Source: Octopus vulgaris
Lineage: Eukaryota
Assembly: GCA_951406725.2 (NCBI GenBank)
Contig: OX597816.1
Span: 171,058,001-171,122,000, forward strand
Direction: 5' to 3'
Length of the DNA stretch: 64,000 bases
Shown: positions 30,585 through 52,523 of the stretch, one piece after another
Numbering within the stretch: position 1 is the first letter of the stretch
How the letters are laid out: each line of letters opens with the position of its first letter
Translations under genes and position numbers: made by a program
The notes under the pieces: generated by a model
What the model saw: only the letters and a program-made list of their open reading frames with translations
Told to the model about the DNA's origin: nothing
The model's database searches: none

Positions 30585-30619
30585 GTTTCTGACGAAGAGC
30601 TCCACTCGAAACGTTAAAC
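30585..30619 (+). ncRNA. Minimal type I hammerhead-like motif in a 210-bp (TA)n-flanked island (30511-30720)
   Basis: GTTT-CTGACGA-A-GAG ctcca CTC-GAAA-CGTT-AAAC; palindrome AACGTT at stem III. Confidence 0.62.
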
Positions 30620-30720
30620 CCTCCTTTTTCTCTTCTTTTCTGAGTGTCCAATAATACTATACTTCTTCCACGTCCTCGCGTTGTTGTGTTTTCTCTTTGT
30701 GTTTTCATGTTTGTATTAAC

Positions 30721-40906: not shown

Positions 40907-41310
40907 AACTAAAACTAAATTCAAAATTTACATTTTAGAACATTTCTTGCTCATTTCTTCGTTCGTAGAGTAAGACAAGTCTTCGATGCCTCACAGAAAT
41001 AAGGAAGTTTGCAAGTGCCAATATATGTATATCCGTGTGTATGTGTGTGTGTGTGTGTGTGTCTGTGTGCGTGCGTGTGCGTGCGTGTGCGTGCCAGTGT
41101 GCGTGCGCGCGCACACGCCTTTAATTCCAGAGTCATTGTTCAGTCATGTGTTGAAAAAACAAATTTGAACTTCTTTCTGTTAAGCTGTTTCATTTTCTAT
41201 ACATTCACACTTACACACAAGCACACACGCATACACACACACACACACACACACTCGAAACGTAAAAGACTGTCTCACTTTCCCGAGCGCCAAACTAATA
41301 CACCCGCTTG

Positions 41311-41365
<55 letters not shown>

Positions 41366-41404
41366 TAGCCTCAACCAATAGGATGTCTAGAGAACTCACA
41401 TGTA

Positions 41405-41495
41405 TTTTAGCTGATGAGTACAGGACACGTTTATATGCTGTAATTTTTGCAACTTTTAATAAAGCCTGTCCTTGTATGAAACGATTGTACTAAAA
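41405..41495 (+). ncRNA. Type I hammerhead ribozyme with long stem II in a 278-bp (TA)n-flanked island (41363-41640)
   Basis: TTTTAG-CTGATGA-GTACAGGACA...TGTCCTTGTAT-GAAA-CGATTG-TA-CTAAAA. Confidence 0.75.
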
Positions 41496-41637
41496 ACCTA
41501 TCCATTCTTGTTGCTTCTTTCTCGCTTATAATCACCCCACATTACTGTATTGTTAAAACAGTATAGTTTGTTTTGGTGCATCTAAGTTAGGTACCTTATT
41601 CAAGTAAATTCATTTAAATTAACTTGAATCTTTATTG

Positions 41638-41699
<62 letters not shown>

Positions 41700-48262: not shown

Positions 48263-48769
48263 CGAATTTTATCAAAAAGTATCGGGACCGTTACTATGGT
48301 AACGAGGTTAAAGTACGCAAAGTGAAGCCGCATGGCACAGATTGACCTTGAACTATGTCGTGTAAGCACACTAAATTATAACAGTTTCACTTCCGTTGTT
48401 TATATCAGTGTTTAGAAGTAAAGTGTGTAGAGTGTAGGTGATTCAAAAAGAAGATCGGGTTTCGATTCCACATGATCTCCTTGATTGTGTCATGGAAGAC
48501 GAAAACGTTTTGAAAACGGTCTTAAAAGGTGACAGGAATCCCACTTGAAAGGAAAGAGATTTCGGAGACGTCGAAAAAATCGAAGGGAATGCAACGAGGC
48601 AGCTAGTCGCTGTCCCCAAAACGGAGTTCAAGAAATGCTTCTATTTCGCTGGATAAAGTGTGTTAGCTTCAGAAGGAGACTACTTCGAAGGGGATTAAAT
48701 GCCGAATTGATATATGTTGTAGTTTTCTTTTTATAGCAACAGTCCCGATACCTTTTCATCAGACTTTCG
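48263..48769 (+). mobile_element. Internally deleted mariner
   Basis: Degenerate TIRs (AAAAGTATCGGGACCGTTACTAT / ATAGCAACAGTCCCGATACCTTTT); C-terminal remnants LKGKRF...RWIKCV...GDYFEGD. Confidence 0.72.
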
Positions 48770-52085: not shown

Positions 52086-52523
52086 ACCCTTAGGGGTTAG
52101 CCACATTTAAGTGTCAAATATGCTTCACGATGTCGGGCAGCTATTGTTTATACCTTGCTCAGACATTTATTATTGCTTATTTACACTTTTTCGATATCAG
52201 TGACTTTTCGTCACTGGAAAAAAGATATATATTTGCAAAGGGAGGCCTACTTTTCATCGACAACCACTGATTGTCACACGCTGATGACGGGTCAATACCC
52301 AGAAACTCGAGTGCGTGTGTATCATAGGTTGCAGACGGGAAGGATGGCTTCCCTTTGCAAATACTGATAGGGAACAGAAAATGTCTCAATAGCCAGCAGG
52401 AGGAGGTGTCCTCCTGGGGCTACAAGCTACAGTAGCATCCACCCTTAAGGGTTAGCCACATTTAAGTGGCAAATGTACCTCACGATGTCGTGCAGCTACT
52501 GTTTATACCTCACTCAGAGATTT

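Follow-up and report, generated by a model that had tools for sequence, protein, structure and literature searches.

Between two (TA)n tracts of the window, by which we mean the whole 64,000-nucleotide stretch of Octopus vulgaris DNA analysed here, lies a 278-base island that carries a type-I hammerhead motif with a long domain II (Table 1). The motif lies on the same strand as the ORF of the parent element described below, and the hammerhead core (CUGANGA, GAAA and NUH in type-I order) is present, with columns that are invariant in an alignment of 17 rows. Sequence and coordinate check confirmed the stems, the core, the GUA triplet (41487-41489) and the flanking TA tracts given in a preliminary description of the locus, including a stem II with one bulge around 39 nt, for which we count 10 pairs. 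The absence of an ORF noted there also holds true, with stops breaking all six frames of the island (41363..41640). The core had been called canonical, which is correct for its bases, all of them intact, but not for the first stem II pair, which is G-U, nor for the 2-bp stem III of the monomer. The latter had been read as ACG-at-TGT, a pairing that would need a 2-nt loop, so that the monomer stem III should instead comprise 2 bp (AC/GU) and a 4-nt loop.

Table 1. Features of the hammerhead-bearing island and its flanks (positions within the window)
Feature	Position	Strand	Basis or remark
Penelope-like element (PLE) 3'-terminal fragment, 5'-truncated (pLTR part and long tail)	41363..41640	+	278 bases
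Type-I hammerhead motif	41405..41495	+	sequence; covarying stems in 17 sister-family sequences
Stem I, TTTTAG/CTAAAA	41405-41410 / 41490-41495	+	sequence and coordinate check
Core CTGATGA	41411-41417	+	sequence
60-nt domain II: basal stem, internal loops, distal hairpin (41439-41451)	41418..41477	+	folding
Basal stem II, 10 pairs and one bulge	41418-41427 / 41467-41477	+	encloses 39 nt (41428-41466)
GAA-A core segment	41478-41481	+	sequence
Stem III region ACGATTGT	41481-41488	+	sequence and coordinate check
Stem III element ACGAUUGU, 8 nt, self-complementary, dimer type	41481..41488	+	self-duplex fold
GUA triplet, predicted cut 3' of 41489	41487..41489	+	hammerhead consensus
AATAAA hexamer within domain II	41458..41463	+	ends 26 nt before cut site
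Family short 3' end position; window copy reads through	41526..41530	+	inverted arms stop here, then TA
Tail, ~110-115 nt, up to family long 3' end	41531..41640	+	family end comparison
(TA)n target tract, left	41315..41362	.	repeat array 41315-41367
(TA)n target tract, right	41641..41695	.	repeat array

A scan of both strands of the window for type-I hammerheads returned the island site and one weak other, and no further clear long-arm copy came up when the window was searched with a covariance model built on the long-arm motif. The island is present there as a single copy and is not tandem. Core-like matches with short spacers occur at 30589-30632 (+), 52281-52326 (+) and 48704-48762 (-), none of which passed the stem test. 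Rfam gave 0 matches in the window at the gathering threshold and 18 at E<=10, with no hammerhead family among them. On the left, positions 41255-41316 hold a 3' remnant of a different repeat, itself present in many copies (963 first-look candidates at 92-95% identity), and this remnant opens with an apparent GAAACGUA half of a minimal hammerhead; since it abuts the left TA tract, the island would have landed beside an older, probably PLE-derived end.

Parent element and genomic copies

The genome copy number of the hammerhead, one of the checks suggested in the preliminary description, was counted using an exact 26-letter pattern alongside a control, and this family core pattern has 936 copies against 0 for the control, so that the hammerhead pattern of the window cannot be due to chance. 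A search of the same genome with the island gave 1,671 first-look candidates, and all 40 that were scored match the full 278 bases at 99-100% identity. Across 29 other loci that were fetched, the best copy in each is 98.6-99.6% identical over all 278 bases, and every one of these loci extends 5' of island position 1 with common sequence. In contrast, the TA-to-island 5' junction occurs once in the genome, and family copies start at scattered 5' positions: 24 different ones for the 25 readable copies of the first locus set, and 22 for 23 in a position-ordered set of 30 loci. The island had been described as stand-alone, which is true at the window locus, but elsewhere the same sequence continues into an autonomous element.

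Longer stretches of other loci reveal a parent unit of ~4.6 kb that is arranged in partial tandems and inverted pairs. One natural copy (L104), 98.2% identical to the island, holds an intact ORF of 957 aa with RT and GIY-YIG parts whose ATG lies ~58 nt downstream of the island-equivalent 3' end, and read-through of the tail into the 5' region of the ORF was found at 15 places. The encoded protein has RWK at 37, DKT (in place of DKG) at 124, YRDD at 355, a CxCx5C linker (CKCRIKSKC) at 818, IYK/YIG at 838/852 and, towards its C-terminus, CxxC (CQLC) at 915 and CxH (CVH) at 945, and we saw by eye no CCHH motif in it. Two long Asn-rich low-complexity inserts lie between the RT and endonuclease parts of this ORF (L104:1877-4747) and make it ~250 aa longer than most homologues (~700-800 aa, in a search limited to 701-2000 aa). 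Open frames of 976-984 aa at six further places indicate that the parent family is young and probably recently active.

Among protein-database matches with a named source, the best include one to a hypothetical Argonauta hians protein (41%), pointing to a cephalopod host. Profile searches against Pfam and PDB identified nothing in the ORF or in four homologues. Contigs of three presumed-RNA runs and one run of unspecified kind (4 of the 23 listed) cover parts of the L104 element, from which strand, ends and level cannot be read; among the contig matches listed there is no spliced joint and, among the rows listed, no poly(A) loose end. The match of the ORF to the canonical-looking PLE RT of another locus (L036) is weak (20%, E 0.023). 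ORFs resembling canonical (non-Hydra) PLE RT or endonuclease adjoin family copies at this locus (L036:5847-7460) and at L033, so different PLE families may cluster at the same sites.

According to Craig et al. 2021, the hallmarks of the Hydra clade of PLEs are RWK, DKT, CxCx5C, CxxC plus CxH and (TA)n insertion (PMC8557442). The parent has a single ORF with an RT and, judged by motif, a C-terminal GIY-YIG-type endonuclease, inserts into (TA)n, carries a pLTR with hammerhead, forms tandem and inverted copies and has a tail on one end. Its unit of ~4.6 kb departs from the short Hydra length, a descriptive feature given as "generally <3 kb". By its motifs and by-eye likeness to supplement sequences, the parent is thus placed as a Hydra-type PLE. 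The island is very probably the 3'-terminal 278 bases of this young ~4.6-kb element with Hydra hallmarks, inserted into (TA)n and likely arising from target-primed reverse transcription (TPRT) that began at the long 3' end and stopped early. The earlier label of a solo pLTR fits insofar as the sequence is PLE-related pLTR sequence, but only loosely, for a truncated 3'-end insertion. As such, the window locus is an ordinary copy, one of hundreds of truncated ones, and the family is more interesting than the locus.

The long domain II and its hexamer

The 60-nt domain II of the window copy folds as one long hairpin, although its folding signal when taken alone is modest (z = -1.6). Sister families were picked by RT similarity (64-87%; 19 regions), and an ORF-strand hammerhead is found in 14 of these regions with a domain II of 51-59 nt in each. 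We aligned 17 sequences picked for alignability (the window, 10 from sister regions and 6 from a pattern search), an alignment that omits hexamer-less and more distant families and whose rows are related, which inflates covariation scores. Pairing holds in 85.5% of cells, compared to 73.8% in shuffled alignments (0/500) and 32-51% in slid controls, and changes on both sides are seen at 13 of 26 pairs spread over stem I (3/6 pairs), basal stem II (5/9 pairs for stem II), the distal hairpin and the stem III palindrome. When RNAalifold was run without constraints, it reproduced the distal hairpin along with stems I and III, but not basal stem II. On this covariation, the long domain II is a conserved fold, and the compensatory changes in sister families provide the covariation in the long stem II that the preliminary description had proposed to look for.

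Genome-wide, long-arm cores (40-66 nt spacer, same stem III pattern) number 13,714 against 40 for the control, and short-arm cores (10-39 nt spacer) with this stem III pattern number 5,420 against 46, so that the long-arm form is the commoner of the two. Many long-arm families have no obvious sequence likeness to the arm of the window copy, yet fold the long hairpin. On contig C1 of the genome G000, several unrelated long-arm families (L173-L192) have a domain II of 44-63 nt without AATAAA and often end in TA or CA tracts; some of them could be Naiads. Of twenty hexamer-less long-arm regions, one is preceded on its own strand by a distant Hydra-like RT (33%), another has a canonical-type PLE RT, and the other 18 have neither. 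At G000:C1:33099609-33105375, eleven hammerhead cores are repeated in direct tandem, mostly at 545-bp intervals. This array is a candidate for a non-LTR retrozyme, and its motif recurs near C1:14261823-14263214 and C1:29193157-29193747.

Tentatively, the domain II of the window's subclade may be long because it houses a poly(A) signal, in which case 3' processing and ribozyme folding would compete near one site. In 16 of the 17 aligned rows, compared to 0.5 expected by shuffling, AATAAA or ATTAAA is present in the 3' half of domain II, with 16-26 nt from its end to the cut site; this hexamer alternates between the two canonical forms, is unpaired in the L098 family and is accompanied by a U/GU-rich stretch downstream of the cut site. 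Several short-arm Hydra hammerheads, inspected by eye in File S2 of the clade description (PMC8557442), similarly carry a hexamer just 5' of stem I. Nevertheless, 21 of 22 motifs in the 20 regions chosen for absence of the hexamer lack it and most of these still fold the long arm, while the aligned rows share ancestry and the sequence is A/T-rich.

A published description of the long-arm variant was not found in the open-access literature searched, and the main text of a 2026 Octopus vulgaris repeat annotation does not contain "hammerhead", "ribozyme" or "Hydra" (PMC13282606); Repbase and Dfam may nevertheless include such variants. Given that the published Hydra rows are short but that spike-moss PLEs and Naiads provide precedents, the long arm is new for Hydra in the literature covered and precedented among PLEs.

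3' ends, inverted pairs and ribozyme activity

The preliminary description had also proposed to look for fixed ends, which are lacking on the 5' side and are found in duplicate on the 3' side. Family copies end, with TA following, at island position ~164-168 (short) or ~278-283 (long), two sites ~115 nt apart, and contigs of run X15, which may not be assembly-independent, likewise have TA loose ends at the short (19 contigs) and the long end (29). In sister families, most short ends are found 34-38 nt downstream of the cut, with longer ends ~105-157 nt from it. The predicted cut site is island position 127, with the family ends ~37 and ~150 nt downstream. Ends at the ribozyme cut site itself were considered and ruled out, given that neither family end maps there. 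A predicted hairpin at 41598-41630 lies immediately upstream of the long 3' end and TTGCTT is found upstream of both ends; these are possible RT recognition signals.

The two ends are strictly paired. On contig C1, 48 of 64 family hammerheads sit in 24 divergent pairs and 16 are unpaired, which suggests that pairs are the usual insertion product. Nineteen of the 24 pairs are long+short, none is long+long or short+short, and five have one arm that was not classified (a short one in three cases on inspection of the locus). If ends were independent and at even odds, 19 long+short pairs out of 19 would have a chance of ~2 in a million. Counted by ends, a short partner lies within 6.5 kb of 25 of the 37 long ends on C1, and a long partner accompanies 25 of the 67 short ends; in neither set does any end have a partner of its own kind. 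These pairing counts use distinct C1 sites only, whereas genome totals of the end pattern include overlapping matches. The window copy is a lone long-end product. A ~10-kb palindromic insertion at G000:C2:37617334-37627971 (L073, L074) has ORF sequence on both arms, and its outer ends are one short and one long. PLE tails have been described on one end only and at 30-40 bp (PMC8557442), and the tail of the anole PLE corresponds to two internal RT start sites (PMC11167929). No account of strict end pairing was found in the open-access literature searched.

We propose that a full copy in tandem would be transcribed through the pLTR into the start of the next ORF. By analogy with the anole PLE (PMC11167929), the RT/GIY-YIG protein would then nick TA repeats on both strands and cDNA would start at two internal sites of the uncleaved read-through RNA, one per strand. 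Such two-site priming would generate inverted insertions with the one short and one long end that are observed. Early RT stops would leave 5'-truncated arms and sometimes a single arm, as at the window locus, where only the product of the long site would remain. The hammerhead would be inherited as pLTR cargo without being needed to set the insertion ends, and may cleave mainly as a dimer in tandem transcripts or with the help of protein.

Alternatively, the island might be the remnant of an inverted or longer insertion from which the partner arm and the upstream sequence were later lost as TA tracts recombined or slipped against each other. Inverted repeats within microsatellites are prone to deletion, and the large share of family hammerheads on C1 that sit in divergent pairs (48 of 64) would fit such an origin. 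We nonetheless regard it as unlikely, because the 99.6% identity to the nearest relatives leaves little time for a deletion, solo copies with varied 5' starts are common (16 of 64 are unpaired) and the partner arm is absent anywhere in the window.

The hammerhead of the window copy has the appearance of the dimer type, given its 2-bp stem III within an 8-nt palindrome and a first stem II pair of G10.1-U11.1 instead of the consensus G10.1-C11.1, which is present in 5 of the 17 rows (U-U is tolerated at these positions; PMC3088659). The stem III element forms a self-duplex of 8 pairs at -7.8 kcal/mol. Its palindrome is kept in 98.5% of cells with both-side changes at two pairs, though the search pattern partly imposed it on 6 rows, and this retention across families points to selection for dimers. 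With 2 bp and a 4-nt loop, stem III of the monomer was found not to be stable, and in the nearest-neighbour model the active monomer fold would make up ~0.2% of the ensemble (-12.0 vs -14.8 free), being rare since a competing hairpin sequesters GAAA together with the cut site. A double hammerhead is predicted at -34.6 kcal/mol compared to -29.6 for two free monomers, although an inactive dimer is the most stable cofold (-36.7), 2.1 kcal/mol lower than the double hammerhead; these folding models leave out tertiary contacts and protein.

Short palindromic stems III mark hammerheads that are thought to act as dimers, and a single minimal metazoan PLE hammerhead did not cleave alone when tested, while dimers cleaved weakly (PMC4209133); the anole PLE hammerhead required its protein (PMC11167929). 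As the window offers no same-strand partner, the lone copy is, by these models, likely a poor cutter. The preliminary description had rated it the best candidate for activity in the window, which finds no support for a lone copy with a dimer-type stem III, a modelled active monomer of ~0.2% and a minimal metazoan PLE hammerhead that showed no cleavage alone when tested.

It seems improbable to us that the long domain II makes the monomer active by docking to stem I or by stabilising the junction, so that lone copies would cleave host transcripts. In its favour, no core base is altered, compensatory changes preserve the long arm with its distal hairpin, and loop-loop contacts accelerate natural hammerheads (PMC3088659). 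On the other hand, the retained 8-nt palindrome, the G-U at 10.1-11.1 and the rival hairpin that hides GAAA and the cut site all argue against an active monomer, and short-arm hammerheads with the same stem III pattern are abundant too (5,420).

Finally, the view of the island as an independent, small non-autonomous ribozyme element with fixed ends (SINE-like or a retrozyme monomer), put forward in the preliminary description, drew on TA on both sides, the missing ORF and a complete hammerhead, and could further cite other TA-flanked solo fragments (L141, L146, L149, L162) and the report of animal retrozymes as non-autonomous PLE derivatives (10.64898/2026.07.22.740005), but it is largely refuted and very improbable given a 5' junction that is unique in the genome, scattered 5' starts (other solos begin at -680, -439, -206 and +16), the continuation into an ORF-bearing element, the lack of an island tandem array and ends that, unlike those of a circular monomer, mismatch the cut site.

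Significance and comparison with known systems

In the field, the function of PLE hammerheads is an open question, as is the way in which tails and inverted pLTRs come about (PMC8557442, PMC11167929). A young family with intact ORFs and strict short+long pairing offers a genomic test of the two-site, two-strand priming model, and its intact 957-aa copies would make both questions directly testable; the window locus matters little by itself. Since neither Rfam nor the published descriptor, which allows a spacer of 7-17 nt, picks up the long arm, hammerheads may be undercounted in genomes of this sort. It is conceivable, though we would not yet expect it, that two things hold jointly: that the more than ten thousand Rfam-missed long-arm copies with their domain II of 50-63 nt represent a selected module (a poly(A)-signal switch in the window's subclade, or an arm for docking or RT binding), and that in one PLE integration both strands are primed, always each from a different one of two fixed RNA sites that lie ~115 nt from one another.

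The closest known relatives belong to the Hydra clade (PMC8557442), with which the window family shares RWK, DKT, the CxCx5C linker, the lack of CCHH and the CxxC and CxH motifs near the C-terminus, as well as (TA)n insertion, a sense-strand hammerhead near the 3' end, tandem and inverted arrangement and a tail on one end. It differs from "generally <3 kb" Hydra elements in its length of ~4.6 kb and its 957-aa protein with Asn-rich inserts, and domain II is ~26 nt or less in 26 of 26 rows of File S2 of that work, compared to 60 nt here. PLE tails of 30-40 bp in the same source likewise contrast with ~115 nt in the window family. Hydra-1_Obim of Octopus bimaculoides (PMC8557442) is a different family of 2,507 bp with a 22-nt domain II and a sequence that differs by eye.

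The long-arm hammerhead of the window family is a variant of the known PLE hammerhead kind. Metazoan PLE type-I hammerheads (PMC4209133, PMC6765202) share the CUGANGA/GAAA/UH core, the short palindromic stem III that is read as a dimer module and the many isolated copies from truncated PLEs, but their "large" helix is 6-8 bp compared to the far longer domain II here, where G-U moreover replaces G10.1-C11.1. Core halves 35-55 nt apart have been described for the spike-moss elements PLE-X1_sMoe and PLE-X1_sTam and for "HHR_half_core" Naiads, a list that includes Naiads of Octopus vulgaris and Euprymna and that places the core halves of some cephalopod Naiads 35-50 nt apart (PMC8557442). These examples come from PLE lineages other than Hydra and were either flagged as deviating or rejected as hammerheads, and the parts of that source covered here contain no covariation evidence for them.

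Animal non-LTR retrozymes (10.64898/2026.07.22.740005) resemble the island as short PLE-related sequences with a type-I hammerhead and without ORF. Unlike them, the island lacks a tandem monomer and a fixed unit, and its sequence recurs in an autonomous parent. As a candidate retrozyme or other non-autonomous element it was rejected for its lack of fixed unit ends and of tandem hammerhead monomers.

With Poseidon of Anolis carolinensis (Frangieh et al. 2024, PMC11167929), the window family has in common two internal RT start sites that set the tail, AT-rich targets and a hammerhead cut that is not at the insertion end. Poseidon belongs to another clade, its hammerhead overlaps the ORF start and its tail is short, whereas in the window family the ATG follows both ends, and inverted insertions combine the two.
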